The notes below the pieces were generated by a model. That model saw only the letters and a list, made by a program, of their open reading frames with translations, was not told the origin of the DNA and did no database searches. Positions 2-35,308 of a stretch of DNA of 35,308 bases are shown here, piece after piece. The stretch is taken from assembly GCA_023132075.1 (NCBI GenBank), contig JAGLYT010000001.1, positions 1 through 35,308 on the forward strand, in the 5' to 3' direction. This DNA comes from a bacterium (lineage in GTDB: Bacteria > CBDUZB01 > JAGLHV01). A program made the position numbers and the translations under genes. Position 1 is the first letter of the stretch, and every line of letters starts with the position of its first letter.

Positions 2-2407
2 TTGATTAAAAAACTCAGCGATAAAAATATTGTAGGAGACTTTCCTTCAGAGATGGCTGTTATCGAGGGGAAATTAGCAGTTATTGATGATGGAGTGAAG
101 ATTTCTAGTGATGCTTTTATCAGGATTATAGATCCTGAGATAGAAAAACCAATGAGTAAGGGTAAGTTAGTTAAGGAACTCAAAGAGTCGAATATTTTCG
201 GAATACGTTTCGCTCGTGACATTGGAGTTATCAATGGTTATCTTGCTCTTTCTAATTTTGCATCTCCTCTTGGTGCTGCTTCCATCAGTATTATTGACCC
301 TGAGATAGATAAACCAACGAGTCCGGGTAGGTTTATTAAGAATCTTGATAATATAGATTTGCAGTTATCAAAAGGGACTTTAGATATTACCGTAGTTGAT
401 GGGAACATTGCTGCTGTGAATTATTATGGCGATTTTATCAGTATTATTGATCCTGAGATAGACAGACCAAATAGTCCGGGTAGATTAGTTAATAAAATGG
501 ATGATGTGAGTTTGGGGTTGTCAAGAACTCGCAGTATTATTGTTACTCGCGGCGGCAAGCTTGTTGTTTATAATTCTGATAATAGTTCTCTTAGTGTTAT
601 TGAATTTGAGGATACGGTTAAGAAAGTTTCCAAAGATTATACGAAGGTAAAAGAAGCAAGAATTCTTCAGTTGCGTGGGGGGGATGAACCAGCGGTTTTT
701 TCAACAGTTCTTCCAAATGGTAATCTTGCTCTAATTAATAGCGAAGAAAATTGGATTAAAATAATTAGTGGCAGTTCTTCCTCAAAGTTTGATGATAACA
801 GTTTAGGATTAAATAAGCCTTTAGGTGCCACCGTGATTAATGGCAATCTTGCTATTTGTAACTCCGGAGATAACTCCATCAGTATTATTGATTCAGATAC
901 AGGTCAATTAGTTAAAAAAATCAAGGATAAGAGTTTAAGGTTAAAGGTTCCTTTTGGCACAACTGTCTTTGATGGAAAATTAGTTGTTTCGAATGCAGGA
1001 AATGGTTCTATCTGTATTATTGACCCTGATACAGAAAAATTAGTTAAAGAAATTAAATTGGGAAGGGGAGAGGTTTTTGGTATTGATGTCATTGATGGAA
1101 ATTTTGCGGTTTGTATTCCAAACGATAACGCTGTAATCATTGTTAATCCTGACACCGGCAAAATAATTGATGAATTTAATAATACTAGTCTGGGATTTTT
1201 GGATAGTAATAACTTAGCATTAAAATGGCCGTTTGACCTAACTGTGGTAGATGGAATAATCGCTGTTTCTAATCAAACCGATGATTCTATCAGTTTTATT
1301 GATCCGACAGTTAGGGGAGGCAGATTGATTGCAAAACATAAAGTTAAGGTACGTAAAGTTGATGTAGATGGTGATTCCTACGAAGTAAGAATGGAAGGGC
1401 CCATGGGCATTACTGGTGCCAATAATAATATCGTTGTTTGTGGTCGATATTTAGTTAGTATGATCGAATTTGAGGATAAGGTTAAGAAAGTTCCGGAAGA
1501 TTATACGAAGGTAAAAAAAGTAAGAATTTTTAAGGACGGTTTAAGGCTAAGTAATCCAGGTTCTTCAACAATTTTACCGGATGGCAATATCGCTATTTCT
1601 AACTATTGGAATCATTCCATCAGCATCATTAATCCTGATAGCGGAAAATTAATTAAGAATTTTAAGGTTGGAACATGGGGATTAAAACAAAACATTCGTA
1701 TTACTGCTATCAAAGGCTTCCTTGCTCTTTCCAGCCATATTGATCAGTCCATCACAATTATTGACCCTGAGATAGATAAACCAACGAGTCCGGGAAAATT
1801 GATTAAAAAACTCAGCGATAAAAGTATTGTAGGGGACTTTCCTTTAGAGATGGCCGTTATCGAAGGGAAATTAGCAGTTATTGATCTTGGTGGAGCGAAT
1901 AGACATACCTCTATTAAAATCATCGATCCTGAGATAGATAAACCAGCGAGTCAGGGAAAGTTAATTAAGGACCTCAAAGAAGAGAATATTTCTGGAATAT
2001 CTTTAGTTAGTTGTATGGATGTCATCGATGGTTATCTTGCTATTGCTGATTATGGAGTTTCTATTAGTGATGATGGTTTCATCGGTATTATTGATCCTGA
2101 GATAGACAAACCCGCGAGTCCGGGTAGGTTAATTAAGAATATTAATAAGAGACATGTAGGCTTAATAGATGGGACTAGAGATATTACCGTTATTAATGGC
2201 AACATTGCTAATACAAATTATCGTAATAACTCTATTAGCTTTATTGATCCTGAGCTAGACAGACCAGATAGTCCAGGTAGATTAGTTAATGAGTTTAATG
2301 ATGATAGATTTGGGTCTAACGACATTGTTGCTGCTACTCATAGCGGTAAGCTTGTTGTTTGTGATTTTGATAATAATTCCCCCCTTACTGTTATTGAATT
2401 TGAGGAT
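2..2407 (+). repeat. YVTN/YncE-type beta-propeller blade array (a dozen or more blades)
   Basis: A blade signature recurs: DG-x-(L/F)-A-(V/I)-x-N-x3-(N/D)-S-I-S-I-I-D-P-D-T-x-K-L-(I/V)-K. Examples are NGNLAICNSGDNSISIIDSDTGQLVKKI (839-922), DGKLVVSNAGNGSICIIDPDTEKLVKEI and DGNFAVCIPNDNAVIIVNPDTGKIIDEF. A variant connector, IIDPEIDKPxSPG(R/K)LIK, occurs 7 times. Three lobes each end in (V/M)IEFED (596-613, 1460-1477, 2390-2407). Confidence 0.7.
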
Positions 2408-5400
2408 GTGGAGGGTAAACGAGGAAGGGTTTTCAAAGAAAAATCAAAAATCATTAAGCACCGAATTAAAAAAGCTCAGGATTTTATAAAAGAAAACAGT
2501 CTGTTTTTTAATGACCATCCGGAACTTCGTAAAAATTATTTATCTAATTTGTTTTATTTGCCCGAAGATTTAAAAAATATTGAGCAAGAAGAAATAAATG
2601 TTTTTATGGCTTTTCTGGATTATAATTTACTAAATCTTCTTGATGAGGCTGCGGTTGAAAAACTTCACAGTCAAATAGCAGAAAGAAATGTGAGGGATTT
2701 AAAGAGGTTCTTTTCCTTATTTGCTAAAATAAATACAAGTTTTTTAAATCAAGCATCTTTTATTGAGTTATTCGAAAGATGGAATAAGTTATTTATCCGT
2801 ATGAATAATTCTAAAATGGAAGAAGCATCGGATATTTTTTATAAGTCACTTGATTCGTATAGTAATTTTTTAACCCCAGAGTTTAAACCGGATGAAATTG
2901 AGGAAGATTTCCTGAAGTTGAGTTTATTATATTTAAGGGGAGATATTAAGGACATTCTTGATATTGAAAAGCAGGTGGTTATCAAGGGTGAGGTTGTTTG
3001 TGAATTAAAAAATGTGCCTTTAGCTCAGATTAATATTGTTTTCAATAAATTTCCTGATAAAACTAAGGAGTTAAGTCAGCTTAAAGATTACCAGGAGCTT
3101 TTAGATAAGGGTAAAGATGAGGATTTAGAAGATGCGGATGGAGATATTCAGAAGTCTATTTATGGACAGGATAAATCAGAAAATCTTTGCATACGGGAAA
3201 ATGTACAGAATGCCCGTAATGCCATTATAATAGAGCGACAGGCGTGGGCATTGCTTAAAAAGTATTATGAACAAAACAAAAAGGATTTTTCGGTAGATGA
3301 AAACAAATTAGATCGTTTTCTTTTTCAGGAAGAAGTTGAAGTTAAAGATAATGCCCGGGAGCATTTAAAACGAAGGATTTTTATTTTAGATAATATAGTA
3401 AAGGGATTATTAAAAAAATCAACTCAATCGCGAGGGAAGATTATAGGAAATCTCTTAAAAGAACTTGAAAAGGCACAAATTGAGATACGTAACTATATTC
3501 CTGAAGGGACAAACGAGTGGGTATTTAGTGTAGAAGATCCGGTGGGGATGGAACTTCCTACGATGACGGGTCCTTTATTGGTAATAGACGAAACAACCAA
3601 TTTGGGTAGTGCTATATCAGAAGGTATTTTTGGGCTTGGATTTTATACGAATTTTGCTGATTTTGATGAAGTAAAGGTTACTACAGGAGTAGGTGACGGC
3701 AAATTTTTTAAACTTACTATTAAAAAAGATAATGACGGCCGGTTAGTAATAACAAGTTTTAAACAATGTAATGGTGATTACAAAGGGACGAGGGTTGAAC
3801 GGGTCAAACATTTTCTTGAAGGTCAGATGCCGGACATTGATGCCATATTTGTTGATTATAGTATTTACCGTTATGTTGCTGCTATCCGGGATGTAAATAT
3901 TATTTATAAGGGTAAAATAATTAATGAAAATTTAAATCTTTTAGGAGAAGTTACTACTCTCTATGGAACAATTAAACTTTATGAAAACGATTCTAAGTAC
4001 CAGCGATTGACCCGAAGTTTTCTTTATGTGGAATATCCCAAATCAGAAGAATATTTCGCTCTTGTACCTGCGCACTTTTTAGAGATTATTTGTCAAAGAG
4101 GATTTACCATAGATTTGCCTCGCGGAATATCTTTAATTATATCCCGTCTTACCATTGATTATAAAGAGAAATATCTACCTATAGTTCAGCAGGCGGTAGC
4201 TGGAGCCTGTTTACAGGCAATAGTAAAATTGTATTATGAAGGAGGAGTTTTTCCACCGGGTTTATCCGAGGATTACTTTAGAGATGAGTATAATTTGGAT
4301 GGAAGAGGTGTTTTTGAAGGGGTTGGAGAAGATGCTGAAAATATCAATGAAAGCCGTATTGACGAGGTTGAATTTAGCCATTATATAATTGATGATAAAG
4401 AGGATAGCGATAAGGATAAAGAAATTAAAAATCGTTCTCTTAAATATCTAATTACCTTAATTGAAATAAAAGATAAAGATGGTGAAAAATTTTCGTTAAG
4501 AGGGAAGAAAGAAGAAATGTTTAAGGTTTTGAGAGAAGGGATGGAAGATCCCCAAAAGATTATAAAAGAACTTAATTTGGAAGATAGTTCCATTGGGTTT
4601 AGAACATACATTGAAAAAAATATTGAAGCAATAAGTGACAATATTGTTACAGAAAAGAATCTCAGAAAAGATTACACTCAAGAAGAAGTTGAAAACTCAA
4701 AGCCGATGAGAGATTTTAAGATGTTTACCGAGATTTTACTAAAATATATGGGTAAGGGACACATTAAAGTCAATTTTTATGAAAAGAGGGAAAAAAGATT
4801 AGCTGATTTTGAACCAAATTTAATTATTTGGAATCTTTATCATGTGAGAACATACATAGAAGAATTACAGAAAATAATTAACAAAGAAAAGGATGATGAC
4901 CCTGAAGCTCTATATCGTTTCTTCCGGAAAATATTGGATGATGTTACCCATGAGAGTGTACATTTTTATGATAAAGGTAAAGCATCTCATGAAAGTGCTG
5001 AAGAATTGGTTGGTTTGTTTGCCTGGATGCAAAAAAAACTAATTCGCGATTATGTAAGGGGTGAAAAAAACTGGGATGCTGTAATTAAGGAGTTGAAAGA
5101 GAAGACCGGGCAAGAATTTCAGGATGAAATGGATAGAGAAGCAAGAGGGATAGATGCGGAAGGAGAAACAAGTTTAGTAGAACACAAGGGAGCTGTAAGT
5201 ACCCCTGTTATGGTTTTAGGTGTATTAGGGTTATTTGTTAGTATATATGCCGTTGTCTTAGGTTCATTGTGGGGAATATGGATATTAGGTTTAGAAGTAG
5301 GGATATTATTATTAAGATGGATAATAAAATCAGGAGGAACAAGGGCTGGTCCTGATATAAGTTTTGAAGGTGAAGAAGGAGAAATTAGTAAAGACAATGT

Positions 5401-8400
5401 AAGTTTCTTAAAGCATTTAGGTGTCATTAATCCAAATTCACGAAGAAATAACCCGTTTAAAAAATTTCTAAGAATCGATCCAAAAGAAATAAAGAGTCGT
5501 TTAATAATAGAAGAAATACTCGCCATAAAAGTAGAACAAACCACTAAAAAAGCAAAAATTCCGCATAATATTGAAACATATAAGCAAAATTTACTATTCG
5601 TAACCAAATGGCTAAAAGCGATAGGTTTAGAAGAATTGGATGCTGATTATTTTACTAATTATTTATTTATGAAACAGGATAAGCTGAATAAAGCAGGACC
5701 CATTTATAATTTGTGTAATGAAGCAGCAAATATTTACGAGGTTATTAGCGGTGAGAGGGTTAGGATACCGGCAAAAACAGAAATAAGTAATATTTTATCA
5801 CAAGAGAAAAAAGCAGAATACCGCAGGCAAAATATCGCAGTTATAAAAACATTGTTAAGCAGATACAGAAAATTAAGATTGATTGAACAAGAAATAAAAA
5901 TTAAGTTTAGTCACTTTATTATTAATATGCATCCTAAAGGATTGATAAGCAATGCAAAGATTAGACTTCAACTATATCAGCTAGAGCAATTATATAAAAC
6001 AATTGAATCAAGGAAAAAGAAGAGTTTTATAGAGAAGATATTATCTATATTTTCTTTTAAATCCAAAAAAGAAGAGGCGACGGAAGTTAAATCTAACTTT
6101 TCCAGAGATAAATTATTAAAAATAATATCAAAACAGATCAGGTTAGAAAAGAAGATGAGGCTCATACCGGTTATTCCTTCCGTTACTGTAAAACGCAAAT
6201 CTGTTATAGGCTATTTATTCAGCCTAAGTATAGTTGGATTATTGTTTGGCAGTATATTTTCTGCTTTACCGATTGCATTGGGAGAAAAAATGCAGGATGT
6301 AATACCGGCAAAGACGATAGATAAAGATGGCAAAGTGATAATAAAAACAAAAGAAGATATGGAAAAGATAGTTGGGGAAGATATCGAGATGCTTTCTTTA
6401 GAAAACATTTCTGTGTTTAGCCCACAGGAAGATGCAAATGTTAGCTGGTATTTAGAGCAGACAGAAGAAATAGATAATGATTTGCAATTATTGATAGTAG
6501 GAAACAATTTTGATTTAATAGAAAACCTGCAAAATGAGAAATTCAGGAATAATTTAGATAAGTACATAATACCTTGTTTGTCGGGATTGGATAAAGAAGT
6601 ACAGATTTATGTAATTGATAATCTAAAATTGTCTAATTGGGTTAAGAGCAAGAATATAGAAGTATTAAGCAATGAAACAATCCCTTCTATAAAAGAAGAT
6701 AAAGGAAAGATTATTTTACCGGAAGAGTGGGTAGCAACATTGGGAGAAGGTGTAGATGAAAGCAATTTCTTAGAGAAAGCAGCTAAAGAAAAAGAAATTA
6801 CCAAAAAACAAGGACTTTTTAAAGGAGATTTTGCAACTCTGACTAATAAGTTAAAAGGATTAATTGATGAAATAGTAAATAAAAATGCTTTTGTTGCCTC
6901 AGCTGCTTCGGCAGAAGGGGTTTATATTGAAGTAATTGTGAATGCAACGATTGAAGATAGTATTAATGCTTCATTAGCTCAATACAAAACTGATTTGGAA
7001 AATGAAGGATATATAGTTACTATTGTTAATGATAATAATCTTAAGACTCCACAGCAAGTAAGGGAATATCTAATAGAAAGATATAATGCCGGGAAATTAA
7101 ACGGAGCTGTATTTGTAGGAGATTTACCAATTGCAGAAGCTATCCTGGTAAATGTTGCGGATACTTATGATTTAACTGAGCTTTTGGATTTCAGAGATGA
7201 GATAAATGAGTTAATTGAACAATATGAAGGAAATTATATCCAGGATGTTGAAGAATATATAGAATTATTTAGAAAATTCTATTTTTATCAACAAACTTTA
7301 ACTGAGGAAGAATGGACATCAATGGATTCATTAAATATGAAAATAGATGTTATTTTGGATAAAGAAAATGATTTTGAAGAAACTTTAATCAGGGAAGTTA
7401 GAAGTGGTGAGATTAAGGCATTTTTAGACGAAGGCAATGAGTTTGAAGATTTATTTCCCAAATCTTATTCTGAAGAAAAGAAAAAAGAGCTAATTGTGTC
7501 GATACAAACTAATTATTATGAATCATTTCCTTTTGATTTTTATTTTATGGATCTGAATAGAAAATGGGAAGATGTGGATAATGATGGTGTAATTAATATT
7601 TTACCCGGGGAAAGTAAAATTAATGATTTGGAAATATATATAGGCAGAATAGATGGTAAACCTTTTGCGTATGATGAAGTGAATGGTGAGTTTGTTTTTA
7701 ATCTTACTAAGGAAGCAGAAATATTAAAATATTATTTTAAGAAAAATAATGACTGGCGAACCGGTAATTTTTCTGCTTGGATGACTGATGCTCCTTATGA
7801 CAACAGCTCTTTGGTTTTTATAGATAATGAATTTGTGGAACAGCTTGGAAGAGGGTATAGATATAGAACTGGTTTAACTTTTGATAATAAGACCTTTATT
7901 AGTAATCCTGATCAAATGACTGCTCAGAGTTATTTAGAGTATCTTAAAAAATATTATTTATGGGTATTTTTAACTAGTCATTCAACTCCAACAACACATA
8001 GTTTTTTTAATATAAGCAGTTTAAATAACGAAAATTTTAGTAGCTGGGAAATAACTAATGCTAAACCACCTTTTTATTGGTTGGCTGCTTGTTCAGCTGC
8101 TGATTATAGAAAAATAAATTATATTGCCGGTTATTACCTTTTTGCAGAAAATAACATGGGATTAGTAGCTATGGGCAGTACCAGAGTCACAAATATAGAT
8201 GTAGCTACTTCGGATGGTTTTCATGAAAGCTTAGAAAGAGAAGATAATTTTGGAGAAGCACTTCAAAATTGGGTGGAAATTAGGGGAAGTATAGAAAATC
8301 CTGATAGGGCAGGATGGACCATTGTCGGAGATCCTACTTTAAAGCCGTTTCCTTCGGCAAATGAGACAACCTTTTTTAATCTTTTACCTAATTATGTTCC

Positions 8401-11400
8401 TTTTGTTGATTCTTTAAGAGGGAATTTGTCTTTTGACCAAGATTGTAATACTACTTTCCATTCCAAACCTGCTTCAATGAAAATTGAATATAAACCGGAA
8501 ATTCATAAAGATGTGCAGGAAGTAGAACCAAATCCGGAATCTATTGTATGGATCAATTATGATAGCTATAATTTAAACGGAGCGACAAAATTAACCTTTT
8601 GGGCAAAGGGGGAAAAAGGAGGAGAGCGTGCTTATTTTGGGATGGGGGATATAGACTCTGGTGATTCGTCTGAAATAAGTACAAATTTTATTAAACTTAC
8701 TAATGAGTGGCAAAAGCATACAATTGATTTAGAAGGCAAAGATTTAAGTAAAATTGAAATGGGTTTTTATCTTATAGTTTTTAACGATGAAAACCCTGAA
8801 GGTTGTGTGTTTTATTTGGATGATATCAAATACGAAAAAGACCCTGAAGTAGAAAAAGAAAAAAGCATTCCCGGATTGGGTGTTTTAGGTCCCCTTTTTG
8901 CATTGTTTTTTGGGAGATATATGCGTAATATTTTTAAGAGAAGACAAAAGATGCCAAAAATAAAAATTGCTCACTGGCGAGCGGCAGAATTAAATAAAGA
9001 TAATAAGCATTGTGGATATTTGAGTAAAACGATAGATAGTAAGAAATTTTTTTCTGAAAGTATGGAGCGAGAAGGAAAGGTTGTTAGGGGGATAAAGAAG
9101 GAAATTAATAAGTTACCAAAAGATAAGAAGACAGAGATTAATATTGATATGTCAGGTAAAAAAATTACATTAATCTTAACTAATGAGGATATTAAATTTT
9201 TGGAAGGAGAAAAAATAAATATTACTGCTTCTGAGGGGAATCTTCTGAGTCTTCTAAGCAAAGCATTAGCTCTGGAGAAAGAGGTTTATAAAAATACGGA
9301 TTATAATAAATTAAATGAAAAAATTATATTATCCTTGCTTGACCGGTCCCGCCATTTATCAGAAGATTGTTATAAGAACAGCTTTATAGGAATAAATAAA
9401 TCTATTCTTGAAATAAAAAATGAAAAAATAAGAAATATAGTTTTTATAATAGCTTTTATGCATGAGTTAAGGCATGAAGCAACCGGAAAAAATGATGATG
9501 TTTTTAAAGAAGAACAATTAGAAAAAGATGTTGTTCTTACCCTTAATCTGTTAAAAGAAGAAAATATTTTATTAAATGATTTTATTGGAGCGTTGGAACC
9601 GTTGATAAAAAAATCAGAGTATTTAAGCTTTTTAAATGACCTTCTTCCCGAATTTAAAAAATATAAAAGAGAACGAATTATAAAAAACACAGATACTTTT
9701 AATAAGGAAAAAATTATCAAAATAATAAAAGGGATAGAAAATACTATAAATGAAAATCCTTATGTTAGTTTTACCGTTGGTGGTAAAGAATTAACAGTGA
9801 AATTAAAAAAAGATAAGTGGAGAATACTGGAGAGATTTATTGAACGTTTTGTTTTCCCATCAATGGATGATGTAAACGATTTCCCGGAATTATTACAGAT
9901 TAAGAGTGATGAATTGCGGCCGGATGTATATATGCCTGATGATGGATCTTTTGGAACAATATTTTTAAAAGTAATGATAGTATCTAAAGTCCCTGTATTG
10001 ATGTTCGTAGAAATTCAATCAACCCCGAAATTTAGAATAATGAAACCTGTAAGTAAAAGGAAGGAATACAGTGTGTGGAAGATAAAAGTGATTGAAAAAT
10101 TTATCAAAGCTGCAGAGGAGCAAGGTGTCAAGACTTTTTATGCTTCAACGACTAAAGTAGTAAAAGATTATTATAAAGGTAAAGGATGGATTAGTAACGA
10201 TAATCTAAAGAATGATTATAACCGCGTATTTAATAAAGATAAAAATTGGAATAAAAAAGAAGTTTATGTCTTTGATCATTTTGATGATGAGATAATGAAA
10301 AGAATGGAAGTATGGTCTTATCAGGACATGAAAGAAGAAAAAATTGTTCCTGGCCACAAAGAGATTAGTATTTTTTCAGCAATGACTATAGGCAGTATAA
10401 TAGCATCATTTACCGGTTTTATCCCTGTTGTCAGTGCGGCACCGGAGGTGGCTACGGCTGGTTTTGGGATATCGTTGTTAGGAATGAATTTATCGGGGAT
10501 ATTTGCTGTTTTTATGTTAACATTGATGCCTTTTATGTCTTTTATTTCAATAAGAGCGCGGCAGGCAGTAGAATTAGATAAAGATGTTTTTGAAAGAGAT
10601 AAAAGAAAAATAAGGGGAAAAGTATTAGAGGAGATGCCAAATATAAAAACATTATATTCGCGATTCAATACTCTTGCTGAACCGGAAAAAGAACTTTTAA
10701 GAAAAGAATTCTATAAAATTGGTAGTGGACACTTTACTTTGTGGAGATTAACTAAACAAACAAATAAAAATTTAAGTCCTTATTTTCATGGCAGTTATAA
10801 AGATGCTTTAATAGTTAGTTTTCCGAATCTTGATTTAGAAAGATTAGGATTTGGCTATGAATGGGATACTAAAGAAAAAGGAATAGCGAGTGTCCAATAT
10901 GCCATAAGAAAAGAAAGGCCGGATTTATGGGATAAATGCCAGCGATTTGATAATCTTCTTGAAGCAGAAAAAGAAATTTTAAGACAGAAATTCTATAGAA
11001 TTACTACTGCACATTTTATTGTGTGGAAAATAAACAGCGCAAAGAACCAAAGTATTACTCCTTATTTTACTGGGAGATATTTAGATGCTTTGATAATCAG
11101 CTTCCCGAAACTCGGGTTAACGGTGGCTGAAAAAGAAGAATATATGAAAAAATATCCAAAGGAGAAGAAATTTACTTGGAAAGATAAAGGAGAAGGTATA
11201 TTTAATATTCGGCGTACTATTCAAAAACAAAGGCCGGATTTATGGAGAGGATATCAGCAATTTAATATTCTTACTGAACGAGAAAAAGAACTTTTAAGAT
11301 GGATGTTCTATAAAATTAGTAGCGGACATTTTGCCATATGGGGATTAAGAACAGCAATTAATAAGAAAACAAATACTTATTTTCATAGGAGTTATAAAAA

Positions 11401-14400
11401 TGCTTTAATAATCAGCTTCCCGGAACTTGAATTAGAAAGATTAGGATTTTTTGGCTATGATTGGACTACTAAAGAAAAAGGAATAGAGAGTATCCAGTAT
11501 GCCATAAGAAAAGAAAGACCTGATTTATGGAAGGTATACGAGAAATTAGGTAGTCTTACTGAACCAGAAAAAGAACTTTTGAAAAATAAATTTTATGAAA
11601 TCACCTATGCACATTTTGATCTATGGGAAATACACGGAGCAAAAGAAATAGAAATAGCACCTTATTTTAATGGCAGTTATAAAGATGCTTTAATAATTAG
11701 TTTTCCGAATCTTGATTTAGAAAGATACGGCTTTGGCTATGATTGGACTACTAAAGAAAAAGGAATAGAGAGTGTCCAATATGCCATAAGAAAAGAAAGA
11801 CCTGATTTGTGGGAGCAATACGAGAGGTTACATAGTCTTAGAGAACCAAAAAAAGAACTTTTAAGAAAAGAATTCTATGAAATTAGTCCCGGACAGCTTA
11901 AGATATGGCAAGTAGGGGGAGCAATGAATAAAAGAGTAGCTCGTTATTTTAATGGTAATTATATGGATGCTTTAATAATCAGCTTTCGGAAACTTGGGTT
12001 AGAAAGGGAAGGGTTTAACCGTAAGCTTATTTCAGGAGTACTAACTAAAAGAGAAAATGAATTATTTGAAGCAAGGAGAGAAGAAATAATCAATGACCCA
12101 ATGGGTCCTTTTGGCATTTTTGGGGATGAGGAAGCACGGCAATTTACTCATGATTTAATAGCCTTTTATTATAAAAAAAGAGGAATAGATGAAAGAATAA
12201 TTGATGATATAATGGATGAAATAGATGAAAATATTTCTGATTCCGAATCTGTTGTTGCAGGAATTTATGAAAACATAAATCTGGATGAAATTGTAAAAGA
12301 ATATAATAGTGACGATTATAGATTGAAAGAAGATCCGGAATTAAAAATAGAGATAGTAGGTAAAGATGTAGATGTAGAAAGGCCTATAGTAGTAGATGTT
12401 GGCTGTGGAAAAAATAATTTGTTGCCTGTTATTGTGAAGAAAAATCCAGGTATAGAAAAAGCTATTGGTACGGATGAAATAGATTATCATATAGAATCAG
12501 AAGATAATAGAGTAGAGTTTAGAAAACAACCTACACCATCTAAAATTCCTGTTGAAAATGGTGAGGCAGATAGAGTGATAATGTCTCTTGTATTACATCA
12601 TGCTACAGATGAAGTAATTAGAAATTTATTGAGAGAGTCTTCAAGAATTTTAAACCCTGATGGGAAATTAATAATCTTGGAAAATACATTTGCCGGAGGA
12701 GCTATTAAACCAAAATATAATAATGAGCTAAGTAAGCGTTTTTCAGAATTAAATGAAGAGCAAAAAGATAAGGTTTTCCGGTTTATAGAGTGGTATAGTG
12801 CAAGGTTGATAAGTAATATAAAAGAAATGCAGTTTGCTTATAATTGGAAGAGTATGGAAGAATGGAAAGAAATATTTGAGGAGGCAGGATTTACAATAGA
12901 AAAAGAAAATTTTCTTGGTATAGTTGATTTACCCTTTACTCCTAAATTGCCGTTGGGAGTTTTTGTCTTGAGGAAAGATGATTTTATCACTCAGAAGGAA
13001 AAAGTTAAGGAAAAAATAAAGGAGACTATAAAGTTTTTAAGTTTAATTAAAAAGGGGAATTGGGAAATAGATAAAGATATTTTAGATATAGATATTAAAC
13101 GGTTAAAAGAACAAAACAAGCAATTAAATAAGGGGCTGGTAAACTTAAAAGGTTTGTCAGAAATAAACGGTAAATTGAATGAAATAAAAGAAGAGACGGA
13201 AGAAAGAATTAAGGACAAAGCGATGCATAACTTAAGTATCTTAACAGAAATAAAAGAGTATAATGATATTATTAAATTGCTTTGTGATAAAGAGAAGGTA
13301 ATGACAAGGTTGGAGTTGGCAATATTAATTAAAATAATAAAGAATGAGAAAGAAATTTTTAGGCAAATGATTGATAAGGAAAAAGACCATGGAAAAATTA
13401 TTGCTATTCATATAGAAAGCATAGAATGGATGAGAAAGAAGGGTTTAACAAATAGAGAAATAGGTAAAATTATAATCTCTTGGCCAGCTGTTTTTTCATA
13501 TGGGAAAGAGAGATTTAACAGGGGAGAAATTAATTTTAAAAATGTAGGCATATTGGAAGAGGGAATTATCGATATTTTAAAGTCCTTTCCTTCATATTTT
13601 GCCTTGGATTCAGTTGTTCAGAAACAGAAAATAGAATGTATTAACTATGTAGAAACAAAAATAGGGGAAAAAATAAATCTGGTAGAATTTATAAACAAAT
13701 ATCCTCTATGGTTTAGTTATAGTGTAGAAAATAAAATTAAACCGACTTTAGATTTATTTATGAAAATACGTGATAAAAATAATGAGTGGACAGATATTTT
13801 TATGAGATTGTTAGCTTGTAATTTGGCAGTAACTAAATTAATTGTAAAAATAATGGGAGAAGAAAATACAAAAAAAATAGATGCAAAAAGAGTTTTAAAT
13901 GTTTACACTAAGTTAGATGTAAAAATTAAAAGCGATAAAAAAATCAAATTTAAGAAGTTAGATTTAGATAAGAATAAAGATACAGGAGAACATTTAAGGA
14001 CGGAAATAATTCAGATATTAAAAGATGAAGAAGACAAATATAAATCAAAAATGGTTAAAGAGCTTGAGGTTGTTTTTGAGGGGCTTATTAATGGTGATGT
14101 CCAAATTAATTGTGATGGTAAGGAAAAATTTAATACAGAATGGGGATGGGTTGATCTTGGGGAATTAAATAATTTTGAGGATTATATATCAGATAAAGGC
14201 AGACAGGCAGTTTTTTATCTGGTAAGGGATCTATATTTTGCAAAAGAGAAGGGATATATAGAGCTGAAGGGAGTACAAACTATTAGTATGCAAAACGTTT
14301 ATAAAGCATTACCCGATGGAATCAAAAAAAAGACTAATGCTAAATCTCAGGCACTATCATGTGCTAAATTTTTTGAAGCAAAACGTTTAATCGAACCTTA

Positions 14401-23400: not shown

Positions 23401-26400
23401 ACCTGTTTTAAAAGAAGAAGTAATGGAACATCTTAACGAAAAATTTGAAATTATAAAAGAAGTATTTCTTGTAAATTCAGCAAAGGGGATATCTATAGAA
23501 GATGCTTTAGCCGGAATAGAAAACGATATGTTTGATGCATTTATTAGAAATGATAACGGTGAAATTATATTAGTTGCTGTTGATGAAGACGGGTTAAAAG
23601 GATCTGCAAGAGATGAAAAAGGTCAAGTAACACTGTTATCTTATGCAGGTATGTTGATGTTGGTATTAGGTATAGGGATTTTATTTGTATTATCCCCTTT
23701 ATGGATTATGGAAATTCTCCTAATCGGTATTATTATGGGAGGTATGGCTATTTATCATAGTCCACCGTGGAGTAAATCAGACACAAAATTCCCCTTCTCT
23801 ATTATTCAAAATCCCTTAATAGCCCTTTTTGTATTAGGACTGCTTCCCCGGAAAGAAATAAGTCCGCAAGTTTTAGACGAGGTTCCTGTTTATACTGACA
23901 TTCTGGAAATAGCGGATATTGAGTGGGATGGACTTATAGGGACCGATAGTCTGGGATATGTTGTACAGAGAGTATTACGCAGTTTAATAGGTGGTTCTCC
24001 GGCGATAAAATTTATTGCCGGCCAAAAGATAGAAGAATTAATGGGTAATGAAAAACAAAAGAATTTAGTGTTAGATATAGCCAAAAATTTGGATTTATCC
24101 GGTGATGAAGAACTTTCCAGCATTGTTGAAATTATAAGAAGGCCGGATAATTTGGTAAAGGAAATAGGAGAAGCAGCCAGAAAATATCTTATTGCTCGAG
24201 GAGATGTTAAAATTCCTGAGCATGATGAGGGTTTACTTTTAGCTGCTAATTATCACATTCAGAGGGAAATAAGCAGTATTGCTGAGGCAGAGAGCAGACA
24301 AATTTCTGTTAACTATGTAGAAAGCGAGGGCAAAAGAAAAAAATTGCCTATAAAATCATTTATTGAAATAATCGGTAAACTTATTATTTCAAGTATAGGA
24401 GTGATTGTTTTAATAAACTTATTTTCCCAATTTATAAAAGGTTGGTTGTATATAATAGTAGTTGTGGGAATAGGCATAATTGGAGGGAAATTTGCAGTAA
24501 AATGGGCTTTTAGTCGTCCGTTAATGAAATGGAGGCAAACAGTTAATGCGTTAAAACCGAAAGATTTAGAATTTATTCTTGGGGATAAGAATGTTAAGTT
24601 TTATCTTAAAATAGAGTCTTTTGGTAAGGATTTAATTGATAAAGGAGAAGAATTAGAAGAAAGGTTAAAAAAATTAGGGGTTGATGTCGAAATCTTAAAG
24701 TATGACGATAAAAAACCTCTTTCTTTTTCCGGAAACTGTAATAAGATTATAATTATAGGATTGTTTCGAAGAAAAAAAACGATTTCTGATATGGATAAGT
24801 TTAAAAAAAATGATATAGCAGTTCGTTATTTTAAAGGCAAAATACCCGAAAAGATGCCTATGAATATAATTCAATGTTATTTAGACGAATTTGAAAAAAT
24901 AGTGCATAATCTGGTTGAATACAAGAAAGAAGTCGTTGAGATTGAAAATATATTATCGGGTGAATTTAATGAAGAAAAATTAATTATTTATACAGATAAA
25001 ATATTGAGGGAGATTTTCGTTTATATAAGAAACCCTGAAAAAGATATTATGCCTATTTCTGAAAGTGAAAAAAAAGTTAGGCAGATTTTTGTGAAAAATT
25101 GCAATTATAATAAAAAAGATGCCCGGAGATTAAGCGATGCATTGGTATCCAGTAAAACTTATTTGCAAATATTAAAGGGTAATAATAAAAAAATAACAGA
25201 TAAGATAACCGGTAATTTATTATATATTCTTGCGTATTCAAAGAGTACATTGGATAAGATAAGAGTTAAGAAAGATATTTTGTTTAATGTAGAGAGATTA
25301 TTTTTTAGCGCAATTGATATAGAAATGTTAAAGAGAGAGGGATATGATAATAAAGAAATAAGAAGTAATTATTTTTCGGGAGAAAATACAGGTAACTTTA
25401 TTTATTTACCTGAAAAGAAAGGTTCCGTTATTAATGTTAATGCTATTTTTTTCATTCGGAAAGATTGGAGAGATATAGTTAATTTGTCTGATGGATACAG
25501 GAAGGTGATACAAGAAATTTATAATGGGGAAAAATCATCGATTCCCATTAGCGAAGATTCATGGAGAGATTTATGGAGGGAAGTAAACCGCCTTAATTTG
25601 CTATTTGAAAAATATTTAAGATCAAAGAAAAATATTTCGAAAGAGAGTTTAGTTCTATCGAAAGAACTAAGAACACAATATTCAGATGATTTAATTGACA
25701 GGATTTGTGCTATGAGGATAGTGAGGAATGCTTTAGAGTCATTTCCTGGGGTTAAATTGAGCAGTAAATTTATGGAAAAATTTATTGAAGAAATAAGAGT
25801 TCCTTCTTTTCCTAAGGATGTTAAAGAACTGGAAGTTTTATTTTTATATTTCGCTAAGGAATATAAAGGGTGGGAAGAAAAAGGTTTGGAACCCTTTGAG
25901 ATAGAATCAATGCTGCTTAGAATTTCTGTAGATGAAGCAAAAATGTTAGAAAATTCCGGTATGAATATAGAAGATATAAAGCTTTTAGCAACTAGAGACA
26001 AAGCAGAAATTAGAAAGGAGATTGAAAGTAAAAATATAAGTACCCCTATAGAAAAAGATGAAAAATCGCGGATTAAAAGATTTATAATATTTGAAAAAAT
26101 CAATCTTACAATTGTTTCTCTTATTGCCTTTCTTATAGGTGCTTTCATTTATATTAATAAAACACATGGCACCGTATTTGCAGTAGGTTTTATGACTTTA
26201 TTGGTGCTGTTGCATTATAATCATTTTTTAATAAATAAATATTCTTTGAAAAAAAGAATGAAACAAGAGATAAGCACAAAATATATAAAATCACTAATTG
26301 AAGATGAAAGTAAAGAAATTTATCTTATACCGGAGTTTACCGGTCAGAAAGAATTAAAAATGGACAAGATAATAAAAAGACTAAATAAAATGGGAATAAA

Positions 26401-29400
26401 AAATGTGGAATTTTTTGAATTTTCCAGCACTAATAAAATTACTGTTTTAAATGATGAAGGTATTATAATAATAAGGTTATCTCCTGTTCCACTGGAAGCG
26501 GGAAAATCTTACTTAACTGATTGGAAGGATCTTTTCCGTTATTTTGATGAAAAATTAAAGACAAAAGCTGAAAAAATAAAGGTTGAAGAAATTACAATTA
26601 ACATTGAATTTTTCGAGGAGGTAATCGATGAATTAGAAAAAGAATATAAAAAAACGGATGATCGTGGCGGAATAGAGCCATTAAAGACGTTGATTATTTT
26701 TCCCTTGTTAGTTTTTGTGGCAGGCATATTTGCATCATTTAGTGGATTTATAACTGAATCAAGTGCAGCATCGGATGTAGCAATTGCTGCTCTTGGAGTA
26801 CCGTTAGGGTTGGGGATTATTTTTAACTGGTTAATTTTGTCCGTAAGTAAAATGGGGGATGAAAATCAAAGATTAATTTTGAAATCGGCTATTAGTAATG
26901 AGTTTGTGGAAATTGTTGTAGAAATGGAAAATAAAGCTGATTTGGAACCTGATTTTAACAAGGCAAAGCGGCGTTATAAGGAAGTCATAAAAAAATATTC
27001 TCGGATTGAAGGAGGTGTGGCACAGGAGGCTATTAGACGCTGTTCGGGAAAAATAGAGGAGAGGGGAGTTAAACTTGTTAGAAAAGAAGTACCGGATTTG
27101 TTTGATAGTATAGTCTTATTTTATTTGCTGCAGGGATTTACTCGTGAGGAAATAATAAAGTCAAAAGGGTTTGGTGTTCCGCATTTGCAAAAAATAACTA
27201 CAAGTCTTTCAAACGCAGGATGGATAGAAAAGGGTAAGGGTAACAGTTTTATTACTACAGGGAAGGCAGATAACCTTATTGGTAAATCATCGACAGATTC
27301 TCTATTACAGTTATCCAATCAGGAAAGTGTAGAAATGCTTATTAGTTTAAAATTGCCGGTCAATAATGAGAACATTGAAAAAGTGAAAGTATTGAAGGAA
27401 AATAAATTTCCGATAAATTCAAAAACTATCATAAATAATTCGGTAGACACACTAAAAATAAAAATCAAAACGATTGAGGACTATAACTTAACGAATAAGC
27501 AGAATAGTAATAGAAGGGGAGGATTCCGATCGATTATAACTTATTCATTAAAAAAAATAGAATTAATATTAGAAACTGTTAAAAGAGCTGATCATTTAGG
27601 GATAAAGATTTATCTGAATGATATTGAAAAACTTGTATTGGTCAAAGGAGAAAACGGTTTTCTTGGTGATTTAAATAATTTTGTTAAGTCAAAAAGAACA
27701 ACAATTAGGGGAAAGAAAAGATTAACGGATTCAAAAATGAAAGTTGAAAGGGAAATAGTTGGTAGGAAATTATTAAAAGCAGCATTAATATGGCCGGAAA
27801 GATTTTGTGAAATTTTTGAAGAACTGGAGAAAAATAAACATACTGAAGAAAAAACGATAGAATTTATTAATATTCTTTATGACTTCCCGGAATTTTTTGA
27901 AATACTTTTAATTTTAGAAAAGGTTAGACCTGTTTCAAAAGAAGAAGCAATAATAAAATTTAAAGAAAAACCGGAAACGGTAAAAGAAGTATTTCTTGTA
28001 AATTCAGAAGAAGGGATACCTATAGACGATGCTTTATCAGGATTAGAAAACGATTTATTTGATGTGTTTATAAGAAATGATAATGGTGAGATTATATTAT
28101 TAGAAAAGAAGGAAGGAAAAAGTGAACCAATAAATCCGCAGGTCTTGGGTGGGGTTCCTGCTTATTCCAATGTTTCTGAGATAAAGAGTATTGACTGGGA
28201 TAGGGTTAATCAATTAGGTGAGTTGGAGATAAAAAAGGTATTACAAAAATTATTCCGTAGTTTAGTATCCGATAAATTTACAATAAAATTTATTTCTTGT
28301 CTAAAAATAGAAGAATTGATGAGGAATGAAGACCGAATAAATTTGGCCTTAAAGGTTGCAAATGATTTGGATTTAATCAAGCGTGAAGGGTTTCCTGGTA
28401 TATTTGAAATTATAAGTAATTCAGATAATTTGGAAAAAGAAAAACAAAACGCAATTAAAAAATATTTAAATGAGCTTTTGCAAAATAAAGCAGGTTACGA
28501 CAAGGATGAATTAAAAACTATAGAGATTGATCCTGAATTATTTAAGCTTATTTATGATTATAATTTCGGGAAGGAATTTAAAGTGCAATTTGCTGCCCCT
28601 GAAGAAATAAAAAATGCAGGAGGCAAGACATGGTTTATAAACAACGAAAATAGAACAATATTATTAAATACTAACTATGTAATAGAAAGCAAATCTGCTT
28701 TTTATGGTTATTTAAGAAAACTTCTTCTTCCGTGGGTTTTAGCACATATTAATGGGCACTTAATTAAGCTGCCTTCCTCTCTCGGCTTCCTTAGTAAACC
28801 TATCAATTATCTTTATGCGCCTCTTAAAATCTTCCAGAATCTGATTTATAATAAAAATATAAAAGATGACTTATTTTGGTTAGTACGGTTAGTACGGTTT
28901 TATATTTTTATATTTGCCTTTTTTTATCTCGGAATTTGCATAGCTGAATTGAGTCATTCCATAGCATTTTCCTCGTTATGGAGAGATGGTTATGCATCGT
29001 TATCTCTCTCACTATTTAACCCCGTTCTTTATGTGCATGAATTTGGGAGGCCTGTTTTCTTTTCATATCGTTTATCAAAAGCTTTGGTATTTGTTTCCGG
29101 AGCTATAGGAATGATAATATATAGTTTAATGTTGTTAAAAAGTGCCTCTTGGATGGAAAAATACAAGAAAGAGTGGTTTTTAAAGAGAAGTTTCTCATAT
29201 CTATTTTTTATGATTAGTGGTTATTTATTTTTATATGCAACGGTAGATATTTTCGGAATGCAAAGTTTTTTTGGTTATGACACACATGGAGATTGGAGTC
29301 TGCTTGTTAATCTTGGACTTTCTCCAATTATTCCGTTATTTGTATTATTGATATTAGTGTTTTATTCAGCAAGTTTTTTGGCGAAAGAAATCAAATATTT

Positions 29401-32400
29401 TGTTGAATATATTATACTAAAAAGCTCAATTAGTGTTATTCTGGTAATATTTAAAAAACCAAGAGAAATTTATAAAAAAATTATTAATTGGTATAGATTA
29501 AAAGTTGTCCCAATTAAAGTAGAAATAGGTTTTGGTAAAAAAGGAGAATTTTTATTAAAAAATGCGGTAAAAAATAAAAGAGTAAGATGGGTTGGAATTG
29601 AAGCAAATGTTGAAATAGCAGAACAAATGAGAGAAGAAATTAATGAAATAAAAAACATTGAAATTTTAGATACAGGGATTTTATCCGCGGAACTAGATGC
29701 AATGTATGATGGAAGTATTAAGACGGATAATCTTAAATTAAATACTATTTCTACGATTAAAAATAATTTTAAGCCAAATACAGTAAGTGGATTTTATATT
29801 AACTATCCTTTTCCACTCAAAGTAGTGAGATTTATAAATGGCGATTTAGCAAAACAATTGTATCATTCTCTGGCTTTGAGTGGGGAAGTGGTAATAGTCA
29901 CTGAAGATATATCTTATGCCGAAGTTATAGTTGAGATTTTTTCAGGAATTCCCGGGTTTAAAAATTATTTTATAGATTTACCCGATGGTTATGCTAAAGG
30001 AGATCCAAAACAATTTAGCGATAGTAAGGGATGGGAATATAAATTATATCCGGAAAAAGATTACTCGAAATCTAATGAAAAAGAAGAAGTATTTTGCCTG
30101 AGGTTTATTAAGCAGGATATACCCGTTTTTAACAAGACAAAATTAATGCTTCAATTTAATAACGAAAAGGACATTTTTGAGAGAATTAAAAAAACCAATA
30201 AAAATACTCTTTGGGTTATTTCGGGTTTTAATGGTAGAGCAGTAAAAGACATTCGCAGAAAGATTAAAAATAAAGGATTAAAAAATGTAATTGTTTACAC
30301 AGGTGTTCCATGGACGATATTAGATGAGGCAAAAGAAAATAATATTTCTGAAATATTTTTGGATAATACTACTTCCATACTTGAAGATGAATATAAAATG
30401 AAAGAGGAAACTTATTTAACAAAACCTGGTCTTGCTCAGAAAATTTCTGACCTACTGGTTTCGGGTGGGAAATTAGTTATTCACGCTTCAAATAAAGAAT
30501 ATATGGACCAAATTAGAGAAATCTTTTCAAAAATTAAAGATTTAAAGGAAGAAATAGTTATAGAAAAAGAAGGTAAATATTTTCTTCATTATACAAAAGT
30601 CAAGAAAGAGTCAAAAAAAGTAAAAATTCCCAAATTTATTTCCGAGCTTGCAGCATTATTTGTGTTGTTAGGTATCGTAGTTTCTCCGGAGAAAAAACAA
30701 GCTGAAAAAATTAAGCTGGATAGATGTTTAGAGAATGCTTCATCCGATGAGTTAAAAATGTTGGAGTTGATTGCCAGAAGAGCAGGAGGGGGTGGGCTTT
30801 ATCGAAGCGCTTTATCTGGTAAGTTTGGTTTAAACCGAACAATAGATTTATTAGATAAGCTTAAAAGGTTTAATGTGATAACCGGCCCGCATGGATCAAA
30901 AATGCATTATAAATTTAATCCTGAGATTAAAAAATATTTTGCAGATAAGGCAAATCAGGTAGTTTTTCAGCATAGAGTTGATAAGTTAATAAGGCAGACA
31001 AGTATAGTTGACCCGGAGAGTGTATTTAGAGCGGTGATGGAGGAAGTTGAAAATGTCGAAGAAATTTATTATGCGTTAAGTTTTATTCATAGAAATTATA
31101 AACTTAAAAAGGGAGAAGGATTTGGAACAGTTCTTATAAATAGAGAAACAGGAAAAGAGCTTTCATCTGCCCAGATTCATTCTCTGATTTCACCGGAAAA
31201 AAAGAATTATCAGTTTAACAATTTAAAAGAAGATTCCCCACTAAGACAACTTTTAATGCATATTCTTAACAAAACAGGGATTTTAGGCGATTTAGGCGGT
31301 TTACCGGCGCGAATGTCGATAGTGCCTGAAAGGAGTGATGATACCCTTTCTGCAATCTCCTCGGATGGGGAACGAGGTGTAGATGAATGGGTAAAAAATA
31401 ATTTCAGAGTAGAGGGGTTAGATAAATTTGTACGGAATGTGTTTGATAAAATCGTTCTCAGGCGTGTAAGGGATGAAGAAGGAACAACAGTTTATTCCCA
31501 CAAATCATTGGATTTTGAAGTAGTAGTTTTAAAGGGCAATCCCCAAAAAGTAGAAGAGATAAAAGAAAATTATAATTTAGCAAAAACAAAAATTTCTGAT
31601 TTAATTCCTGCGTTTAAAGTAATTGAAAATCCGAAAATAATAATTGAAAAAGTAAATGGACAAGGATATGTAGAATACGATTATGCCGTTGTCCGGGAAA
31701 AAACTAAAACTTGCCAAAATGTAAAGGGGTTAAAATTTAAAGAACTTGTTGAATTGATTTTTAGTATGTGGGAAAAAAGAATATTTTTCCCGGGAAAAAT
31801 ATTTATTCAAAATTTCGGTATTAATAAAGAGGGAAACATTGTTTTAAAAGATTTAGGGATTGTAAAGCCGGATTCAATTTATGAAGATAATTTCATTCTT
31901 TATTTGCGCAATTTGGATGTAGTTAATAAATTTAATCCATTAGATGTTTTTAGTAGGGGTAAAAAACCAGTAAGAGTAAACATATTATTATGGGTAAAGA
32001 GTTATTTAAACTTGTTTATATATAATTCTCTTTTTGTAAAAATATGGCTTAGAATTAAAATAGAAAACGCAAAGGAATACTTAGGTAATTTTTTAAAAGA
32101 GCATTCAATTAAAGAAAATGAAAAAGGCCGTTTAAAGAATTTGGCATTTCTCCCTGTCATTTTTGGGGTACTTAGATGGCAAGGATTAAAAATATGGAGT
32201 AAATTTATGGCAAGGTGGAGATTTGTTTTCAGTAAGGATATTGATGAAAAGGCGGATATATTTTTGACTATGCTGTATGAACATAGAGATAGCCAAGATT
32301 TGTTAAGAAAGATGAAGATTAAAGAAAGAAAAGCTCTTGTTAGAGCGATAATTAAGTCAAATAACTCTAGAATAGAAGAATTTCTTAAAGAACTTATTAA

Positions 32401-35308: not shown

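Follow-up and report, generated by a model that had tools for sequence, protein, structure and literature searches.

Does a stretch of DNA that can be read as protein from one end to the other hold one gene, several genes or an accident of composition or assembly? A stretch of 35,308 nucleotides from contig JAGLYT010000001.1 (assembly GCA_023132075.1), referred to here as the window, raises this question through a single forward frame that covers all of it. Our analysis indicates that the window is probably an internal fragment, at least 11,769 codons long, of a single giant gene whose uncultured bacterial source belongs to the Omnitrophota or lies close to them, within the Planctomycetes, Verrucomicrobia and Chlamydiae (PVC) group, and that this gene would encode a chain of cassettes threaded through the membrane. 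Features are given below by residue (aa) of the translated frame and by nucleotide position (nt), and all of them lie on the forward strand.

A stop-free reading frame over the whole window

Frame +2 (nt 2-35308) was scanned for TAA, TAG and TGA, and none was encountered in 11,769 codons. This had been the central assertion of a preliminary description of the DNA, and it held in full. The other five frames contain between 357 and 1,512 stops, and their longest open stretches extend over 67-209 codons. The same description had put the maximum outside the giant frame at 209 residues, which is exactly the value obtained for frame -2 (357 stops over the whole window). Such openness is common in an antisense frame in codon register with purine-rich, RNY-biased coding sequence, and frame -2 is not a second gene. 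At the composition of the window (31.2% G+C) the probability of a stop is 0.092 per codon, and the chance of 11,769 codons without one is about 1e-496. Neither a start nor a stop codon of the giant frame lies inside the window; therefore, the gene is truncated at both window ends. The expectation that the true gene exceeds 35 kb is borne out by a frame that is open at both ends and carries a coding signature throughout.

In every 3-kb bin the G+C content of the first codon position (0.38-0.46) is greater than that of the second (0.26-0.32), which in turn is greater than that of the third (0.23-0.27), and 65-72% of the first positions are purines. Paralogous segments inside the frame display ratios of nonsynonymous to synonymous substitution (dN/dS, NG86 method) of 0.31-0.76, all below 1. 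No shift of G+C or skew was detected along the window, and the translation is rich in lysine, isoleucine, leucine and glutamate. The coding strand maintains a strong and steady purine excess (GC skew of +0.23 to +0.44, with A exceeding T), which fits a very long gene read in one direction; its relation to replication needs the rest of the genome. Neither an Rfam family nor a tRNA was matched in the window, the window is not enriched in sigma-70-like promoters or intrinsic-terminator-like sites relative to shuffled sequence, and only one ATG with a Shine-Dalgarno-like site occurs in frame. Repeats at the DNA level are short and diverged (at most 92% identity over 93 nt and at most 89% over 300 nt), so a collapse or mis-join of identical repeats is unlikely; repeat collapse was rejected as the cause of the open frame, as long identical repeats were not found. 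These results support one giant gene that exceeds the window, and neither a chance open frame nor several genes.

An Hsp90-like core and its stand-alone relatives

The frame enters the window in a beta-propeller repeat array of YVTN/NHL/PQQ-like blades (aa 1-800, nt 2-2401), recognized by profile matches (PQQ_2 at 2e-5, hydrazine synthase beta at 3e-7 and beta_rpt_yvtn) and by internal paralogy, its two halves (aa 1-221 and 600-822) being 55% identical. The array is collinear with the propellers of two related proteins, P0001 and P0002. A helical region common to all relatives (aa 808-1075, nt 2423-3226) leads into the ATPase core, with 24-27% identity to proteins P0003, P0004 and P0005 and to genomic loci L007-L009. 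The core itself (aa 1040-1700, nt 3119-5101) was analysed through alignment A1, which comprises the window sequence and five homologues, together with AlphaFold2 and Foldseek. Invariant in A1 are an N-box, RE..QN...A (aa 1065-1074), a D..GM motif and the G..G.G..T.F pattern of the G2 box, which reads GIFGLGFYTNF in the window (aa 1208-1218); a conserved HExxH...H motif (aa 1650-1664) closes the core at its C-terminal end. The AlphaFold2 model has a predicted local distance difference test (pLDDT) value of 73, and its top Foldseek matches are full-length Hsp90, TRAP1 and GRP94 (E 2e-9, probability 1.0, template-modelling scores of 0.26-0.31). Motifs and model point to a Bergerat-fold domain in aa 1040-1700 with an Hsp90-like N-terminal and middle-domain fold and predicted ATPase activity.

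The predicted fold and the N- and G2-boxes resemble those of the Hsp90/GHKL proteins (HtpG, TRAP1, GRP94 and sacsin-like repeats), whereas identity to Hsp90 is only 12-15%, the structural match is as modest as the above scores imply, and the window core adds a large helical insertion after the N-box as well as the C-terminal HExxH...H. Pfam HATPase_c did not match the window core above threshold. This core is the only part of the window with homologues across many metagenome-assembled genomes (MAGs).

The relatives of this first cassette are ordinary genes. Residues 2-1729 of the window are collinear with the C-terminal two-thirds of genes of 2.3-3.0 thousand codons (P0001 aa 1088-2629) at 33-50% identity. 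In the stand-alone proteins that combine a propeller, an Hsp90-like ATPase and an HExxH motif (P0001, P0004, L005 and L007, from PVC-group MAGs), all GHKL and HExxH motifs are conserved. At every locus that has the 3' end of the gene on its contig (L001, L002, L005 and L007) the homologous open reading frame (ORF) stops 25-180 codons past the core, whereas the window frame enters a transmembrane (TM) hairpin at this point and runs for more than 10,000 codons further. Two fragments from relatives, P0010 and P0018, also continue unbroken through equivalent hairpin junctions; therefore, the read-through at the junction is not peculiar to one assembly.

The surroundings of P0001 are known from locus L001 (JGI 3300009373, Ga0118719_1001474, 1-24842). 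The gene has an intein-containing RtcB gene and a SerRS gene upstream and, on its downstream side, genes for an HTH_3 protein, a phage-type integrase and a Fic protein. This neighbourhood may mark the border of a mobile element; if so, it would recall the 'integrative-element passenger' idea of a 2026 Omnitrophota preprint.

A peptidase and sugar-binding loop with predicted export

Two single TM helices further along the frame bracket exactly one segment that combines a peptidase and a sugar-binding domain. The first (aa 2077-2093, nt 6230-6280; Kyte-Doolittle value of 2.24, with three lysine or arginine residues in the 15 upstream positions) is the predicted entry into an exported loop, and the second (aa 2957-2975, nt 8870-8926) is predicted by the positive-inside rule to return the chain to the cytoplasm; the strongly basic stretch RRQKMPKIKIAHWR follows it directly.

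The peptidase (aa ~2290-2790, nt 6869-8371) was assigned to family C25 (gingipain type, clan CD) from its homologues and from a conserved histidine and cysteine. An exhaustive HMMER search covering aa 2090-3289 retrieved 2,357 proteins. Homologues at phmmer E-values of 1e-23 to 1e-32 pass the gathering threshold of PF01364, and P0025, P0033, P0034 and P0039, which align to aa ~2500-2790, are among those exceeding the Pfam Peptidase_C25 threshold. PF01364 did not match the window tile itself at E<=0.05; membership in C25 is thus transitive, as the homologues and not the window tile pass the model. Both catalytic-position residues, His2660 and Cys2697, are retained, and their columns are 97% conserved in a 61-sequence alignment. 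Behind the peptidase lies a beta-sandwich resembling carbohydrate-binding module family 30 (CBM30; aa ~2850-2950, nt 8549-8851), which matches CBM30 at E 0.009 and whose homologue P0009 matches it at 2e-7. Among plasmid sequences, matches of about 100 aa fall on a protein of glycosyl hydrolase family 17.

Read most simply, the predicted topology has the C25 and CBM30-like loop exported and the remaining cassettes in the cytoplasm. The loop resembles the gingipains in its conserved histidine and cysteine, in the carbohydrate- or adhesin-type beta-sandwich that comes next and in its predicted extracytoplasmic location. It differs from them in being an internal loop between two TM helices of a giant protein, while gingipains are secreted by way of the C-terminal domain of the type IX secretion system. 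The preliminary description had mentioned a proposed role of giant ORFs in prey attachment and cell-wall attack. That proposal suits this loop only, and does not extend to the other segments, which are predicted to be mostly cytoplasmic.

Hairpin junctions and predicted membrane topology

Hydropathy analysis located about 25-30 hydrophobic helices in 13 clusters, which amount to approximately 5% of the residues and occur once per ~500-1,500 aa. Most clusters are helix pairs: the 15 positions ahead of the first helix include three to five lysine or arginine residues, the connecting loop has none, and two to four come after the second helix. Because these flanks obey the positive-inside rule, both ends of each hairpin would be cytoplasmic, a placement that fits the nature of the cassettes (ATPase, methyltransferases, winged helix-turn-helix (wHTH) and mTERF domains) and the lack of a signal peptide in P0003, P0004 and P0005. 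The pattern argues for most of the fragment being a cytoplasm-facing, membrane-tethered platform and not mainly an extracellular attack organ.

Hairpin J1 (aa 1733-1776, nt 5198-5329) lies about where the genes of the relatives end and is followed by GTRAGP. In J2 (aa 3458-3517, nt 10373-10552) the first helix ends in GFIPVVSA followed by AP, and a loop of about 20 aa leads to the second helix. In J3 (aa 5137-5198, nt 15410-15595) the corresponding residues are GFISTASA and QP, with GTRAGP and the short hydrophobic motif NPLTAFLVLAVIPRK coming after the hairpin, and in J4 (aa 6757-6816, nt 20270-20449), identified by hydropathy, they are GFIPLASA and AP. Three more hairpins (aa 8120-8166, aa 8700-8740 and J6 at aa 8896-8947; nt 24359-26842) have unannotated soluble domains between them, and a cluster of two to three helices, J7 (aa 11199-11275, nt 33596-33826), was recognized from hydropathy near the end of the window. 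J2, J3, J4, J6 and the junction in P0018 share the pattern GF(I/V)..(V/A/S)xA, then (A/Q/E)(P/S), at the outer end of the first helix, and this pattern complies with the -3/-1 rule of signal peptidase I.

Two short motifs accompany the junctions. GTRAGP stands immediately after the second helix at aa 1779 and aa 5199 (nt 5336-5353 and 15596-15613). A hydrophobic motif of 12-18 residues, NPLxAxFVLxxxPRK, which is not long enough to be called a TM helix with confidence, is present at aa 5217 and aa 7937 and in variant form at aa 10212 (nt 15650-15688, 23810-23851 and 30635-30685); P0010 contains a comparable stretch.

The junction pattern raises the question of whether the product stays in one piece. 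An alternative to a single working molecule is a polyprotein, or 'operon in one ORF', that is cut at the hairpin junctions into about ten separately anchored proteins, either by signal peptidase I after the small-x-Ala with which the first helix ends on its outer side or by the C25 and zincin-type peptidases of the protein itself, or by both. The single ORF would then be a device for co-expression and co-insertion. The five junctions that carry the pattern indeed share a basic n-region, a hydrophobic h-region, the compliant -3/-1 residues and a second helix followed by lysine or arginine. Three peptidase-type domains are on board, the first cassette is a stand-alone gene in relatives, and cleavage by C39 or S8 peptidases has been raised for other giants by West-Roberts et al. 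(10.1101/2023.11.21.568195). However, the first helices of J2, J4 and J6 are 19-23 residues long and exceed typical cleaved signal peptides, the motif is missing from junctions J1, J5, H, I and J7, small residues at helix ends are also common in uncleaved hairpins, and the C25 domain is predicted to lie across the membrane from most junction flanks. We therefore consider cleavage into separate proteins unlikely. A more specific version, by analogy with flavivirus polyproteins and their processing by the signal peptidase of the host, would make the hairpin junctions internal signal-peptidase sites that release about ten membrane-anchored cytoplasmic enzymes or scaffolds and one exported C25/CBM unit, from a gene grown by stop read-through and by duplication of cassettes and junctions; this appears somewhat less probable still. 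A single membrane-threaded polypeptide is the reading followed below.

Other domains and internal repeats

Self-comparison of the window protein revealed widespread, diverged internal paralogy (22-55% identity), and a sequence search of the PDB with the entire protein returned no match at E<=0.01. Annotation based on hidden Markov models (HMMs) or homologues reaches about 20% of the residues. Beyond the exported loop lies a zincin-like domain (aa 3024-3214, nt 9071-9643; HELRH at aa 3154-3158), recognized from motif conservation and a structural model. It is also present in P0003, P0010, P0018, P0038, P0081 and P0153, and ten copies from six proteins preserve the pattern GIN...HE..H with little or no variation. 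The part of the model with a pLDDT of 62-89 resembles the catalytic domain of M1 aminopeptidases (Foldseek probability 0.99, E 5e-3) and also the minimal zincins selecase and jannalysin (template-modelling score up to 0.51). A third zinc ligand was not recognized, and motif and fold give weak-to-moderate evidence that this segment is a zincin-like domain. A GNAT-like reading of aa ~3300-3400, made by eye, was discarded; pLDDT there is below 50, and acetyltransferase matches reach a probability of only 0.25.

Five tandem repeats of about 95 aa follow (aa 3531-4008, nt 10592-12025; 35-54% identical), which at the DNA level constitute family D1 with five copies, a spacing of 282-315 nt and 68-74% identity. 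The next recognizable domain is a class I S-adenosylmethionine (SAM)-dependent methyltransferase (aa 4127-4302, nt 12380-12907) with motif I VDVGCGKN and matches to Methyltransf_23 (9e-10) and Methyltransf_11 (2e-8). Helical repeats at aa 4473-4592 (nt 13418-13777) match mTERF at 2.4e-9 and 37 bits against a cut-off of 23.1. A possible HIT/Ap4A-phosphorylase-like domain (aa ~5300-5515, nt 15899-16546) has a sub-threshold match to ATP_transf (E 0.012) and a histidine-triad-like HLHSHL (aa 5383-5388) read from the sequence; we regard this weak assignment as a lead only. A module at aa 5551-5687 recurs at aa 6823-6960. Between its two copies lie six tandem repeats of about 155 aa (aa 5737-6757, nt 17210-20272; 29-54% identical, with one sub-segment at 82%), corresponding to DNA families D3, D5 and D8 and displaying dN/dS values of 0.31-0.50.

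The second half of the window contains a recurring cassette of about 1,000 aa, consisting of a wHTH array, a helical 'ENKADLE' part, a hairpin and the next domain. It occupies aa 7053-8063, is partly repeated at aa 8960-9489 and begins again at aa 11296. Its array comprises approximately four probable wHTH units (aa 7053-7460, nt 21158-22381). Unit boundaries were read by eye, and the SarA/Rot wHTH match (1.5e-6, 28.6 bits against a cut-off of 27) covers aa ~7050-7111. The ENKADLE part with hairpin J5 (aa 7879-7918) and the next domain extends over aa 7461-8063 (nt 22382-24190) and was delineated by self-comparison; its copies, at aa 8960-9489 and from aa 11712 onward, are 33-48% identical to one another. 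A second wHTH array (aa 11296-11700), 54% identical to the first, and the start of the third ENKADLE part are cut by the window end (nt 33887-35308; 52-54% identity to aa 7040-7540). Further matches of this second array are to the TK0271 family (E 0.004) and to the wHTH part of a CARF model (2e-5). At aa 8950-8982 (nt 26849-26947) the middle copy reads QRLILKSAISNEFVEIVVEMENKADLE, with the first wHTH helix fused directly onto the ENKADLE helix. To judge from this sequence, it looks as if that copy has lost in-frame the ~400-aa wHTH array found at aa 7053-7483 and 11296-11723.

Further segments lie between the middle copy and the last. A polytopic membrane domain of about five to six helices (aa 9624-9817, nt 28871-29452) was recognized by hydropathy, and no HMM matched it; LAHINGHL precedes it (aa ~9575-9590), and AELSHS and YVHEFGRP lie inside. 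These histidine and glutamate motifs could belong to an intramembrane metalloprotease-like or CPBP-like domain. It is followed by a TrmB-type SAM methyltransferase (aa ~9825-9988, nt 29474-29965), with Methyltransf_4 at 9.5e-15 and TIGR00091 at 4.8e-13, the latter under its equivalog cut-off. In addition, IFIQNFGINKEGNIVLKDLG within nt 30659-32161 (aa ~10440-10640) resembles the catalytic loop and DFG region of protein kinases with the catalytic aspartate replaced; this pseudokinase-like stretch was read by eye, and no HMM supports it.

Relatives and origin of the gene

A word-indexed search of 5.8 billion proteins retrieved five proteins (P0001-P0005) with aa 800-2960, matching the 808-1729 part only, and no relatives with aa 6800-7890 or aa 9500-11300. 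The exhaustive HMMER search found relatives that were missed there, namely fragments with 80-88% identity and thousands of domain homologues; therefore, the absence of a word-indexed match is weak evidence of orphan status. P0001-P0005 map to aa 2-1729 of the window; one of them is labelled Candidatus Omnitrophota, and P0003 comes from Ca. Theseobacter exili (Auribacterota, PVC group). When A1 was run against the GTDB species genomes, nine loci (L005-L013) were obtained, five of which lie in Omnitrophota MAGs. The best of the nine, on a contig of 'Omnitrophica bacterium GWA2_41_15', has 49.5% identity over 933 aligned columns (aa 776-1697). A scan of JGI metagenomes with the wHTH-cassette alignment A2 gave no relative, and an exact 36-mer from the 3' end of the window did not occur in the genome, viral and metagenome contig collections.

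The closest fragments, P0006 (aa 2202-2645, 80% identical) and P0008 (aa 3123-3469, 88%), both come from NCBI MAG GCA_023143305.1. Fragments that share cassettes with the window are P0010 (60%), P0018 (52%; GCA_023143305.1) and P0153 (40%; an Omnitrophota MAG). P0018 (MCK5534470.1), an ORF fragment of 1,539 aa, joins a zincin-like domain to a HATPase_c histidine-kinase ATPase (1.5e-16) and carries the junction hairpin motif. The genome of this close relative has at least one further cassette arrangement, which is either a second giant gene or another part of the same one.

From these sequence relationships the origin of the gene is most probably bacterial, in the Omnitrophota or a neighbouring PVC lineage. 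The link to Omnitrophota drawn in the preliminary description gains substance from the best contig, from the five Omnitrophota loci among the nine and from the other PVC relatives; its mention of DPANN archaea found no counterpart, in that we obtained no evidence for a DPANN-archaeal origin. A different kind of host, be it a DPANN archaeon, a bacterium of the Candidate Phyla Radiation (CPR), a jumbo phage or plasmid, or a low-G+C eukaryote, would suit the 31% G+C and the composition rich in lysine, isoleucine, leucine and glutamate, both typical of DPANN and CPR, as well as the weak matches to archaeal-type wHTH models (TrmB, TK0271) and the mostly eukaryotic distribution of mTERF. Such a host is nevertheless highly improbable, with every labelled sequence relative bacterial and mostly from Omnitrophota or other PVC lineages, and with LpxK and a lipid A acyltransferase among the neighbours of relatives. 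A phage or plasmid source was rejected after tblastn gave no match in 50,697 phage records and plasmid matches of only about 100 aa, all CBM-like. Likewise, a defence system was rejected, as the PADLOC matches were unspecific, one to a methyltransferase model of generic type (mad2) and one to the CARF model in its wHTH part.

Comparison with known giant proteins

Genes of this size were presented in the preliminary description as rare in prokaryotes, a premise that has been overtaken by catalogues containing thousands of such proteins (PMC10066038; bioRxiv 10.64898/2026.06.07.730766). The first reported ORFs above 20 kb from 77 of 116 Velamenicoccia genomes and also from further classes of Omnitrophota; these ORFs have numerous TM helices and little domain annotation and are poorly conserved (PMC10066038). 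The second lists 3,650 proteins of at least 10,000 aa in 18 samples, 94% of them possessing TM helices or a signal peptide; of 916 catalogued long proteins, 46% are 'TM-only' and were interpreted as anchored in the membrane with their domains in the cytoplasm; 80% of the sequence clusters are singletons; internal repeats are diverged at the nucleotide level; and methyltransferase and histidine kinase/HSP90-like ATPase domains are among the commonest Pfams (Nielsen & Lui, bioRxiv 10.64898/2026.06.07.730766). West-Roberts et al. describe proteins of up to 85,804 aa and define Archaeovorin and Dockerin types (10.1101/2023.11.21.568195).

The window resembles the Omnitrophota giants in its more than 10,000 codons, in its many TM helices at low and even density and in its few Pfam matches. 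It also shares their content of methyltransferase, HSP90/histidine kinase-like ATPase, NHL-type propeller and peptidase domains, their DNA-diverged internal repeats and their very low sequence conservation, and its relatives occur in Omnitrophota MAGs. It differs in its richness in probable wHTH arrays and mTERF-like repeats, which the two reports do not highlight, and in the parts of them consulted we met no description of a recurring hairpin junction with GFI..xA followed by xP. The window presents a coding frame of at least 30 kb, spread TM helices and many domains with diverged repeats, the traits of giant membrane-threaded ORFs. It is a new member of this established class, whose ORFs are giant, little conserved, threaded through the membrane and composed of many domains, and agrees with it in every testable respect except proven taxonomy.

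The Archaeovorin type is represented by the 39,678-aa protein of Velamenicoccus archaeovorus LiM (10.1101/2023.11.21.568195). Like it, the window protein is giant, TM-rich and multi-domain, carries methyltransferases and peptidases, likely belongs to a host-dependent PVC bacterium and has an exported hydrolytic and sugar-binding element that could act on the surface of a partner. In contrast to Archaeovorin, the fragment is predicted to lie for the most part in the cytoplasm and not outside the cell. No SecA_DEAD or SecA preprotein-binding match was obtained from the window tiles at E<=0.05 (Pfam, NCBIfam), and C39, S8, glycosyltransferase (GT1/GT5), glycoside hydrolase, HEAT, TPR and NUDIX models of Pfam and NCBIfam did not match the window. 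Because the gene extends beyond the window, these missing hallmarks lower the probability of Archaeovorin membership without excluding it; the N-terminal region, which in that type carries a signal peptide and a C39 or S8 peptidase, lies outside the window. Dockerin_1 and TSP3, the repeats of the Dockerin type, likewise had no match in the window.

Proposed organization of the gene and its product

We propose that the product consists of large soluble units joined by recurring two-helix hairpins with basic flanks. The soluble units would include the propeller array, the Hsp90-like core, the zincin-like domain, methyltransferases, mTERF-like repeats, probable wHTH arrays and diverged tandem repeats, and one exported loop between two single TM helices would hold the C25 cysteine peptidase, its catalytic residues intact, and the CBM30-like sugar-binding domain. 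Two processes may have enlarged the gene. A forerunner of about 2.5-3 thousand codons, encoding the propeller and the Hsp90-like core, would have been extended past its stop by read-through or fusion, and cassettes would have been duplicated internally and repeatedly together with their hairpins. We infer this course because the stand-alone relatives stop past the core and the cassettes are duplicated. Functionally, the protein would be a platform in a host-dependent bacterium that is anchored in the membrane and combines several enzymes with scaffold parts, its exported protease/CBM loop acting on an external substrate of the host or the envelope. The open frame, its coding signature, the domain identities, the relatives with the ends of their genes and the internal paralogy are observed; topology, expression as a single polypeptide and function are inferred, with the platform as the most likely function.

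Several observations weigh against this proposal. P0001 has a signal-anchor-like segment near its N-terminus, which would place its propeller and ATPase extracellularly; the topology was derived from simple hydropathy and charge analysis; and about 80% of the window protein is without HMM- or homologue-based annotation. With regard to origin, the remaining four of the nine GTDB loci are labelled Chlamydiae, Deltaproteobacteria, Actinomycetes or uncultured bacterium, GCA_023143305.1 (locus tags KAI68_), the MAG of the closest fragments, is labelled only '[bacterium]', and the 31% G+C of the window is below that of every related locus (36-56%). As a consequence of these labels, the phylum call is probable and not certain.

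Least probable of all is an assembly or sequencing artefact that fused adjacent genes or unrelated loci through mis-joins, lost stops or frameshift 'polishing', for although the first module of the relatives stops near where the window frame continues and the gene does contain diverged repeats, about a dozen cassette boundaries all fall in one frame without a stop or intergenic-like spacer, the open frame has the vanishing chance probability given above, composition and codon signature are uniform, repeats are short and do not exceed 89-92% identity, and P0008, P0010 and P0018, which come from independent assemblies of relatives, continue through equivalent junctions.

Genes of this kind abound in host-dependent bacteria that resemble the Omnitrophota, and the window leaves this general picture unchanged. 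To it the window adds a clean and self-consistent 35-kb example of giant-gene organization, with a conserved membrane hairpin recurring between cassettes and one protease and sugar-binding loop, predicted to be exported, amid mostly cytoplasmic, partly nucleic-acid-type domains. The first cassette, being an ordinary stand-alone gene in relatives, suggests a concrete evolutionary route by stop read-through and cassette duplication, and the junction motif offers a hypothesis on processing in this class of proteins that can be put to the test.

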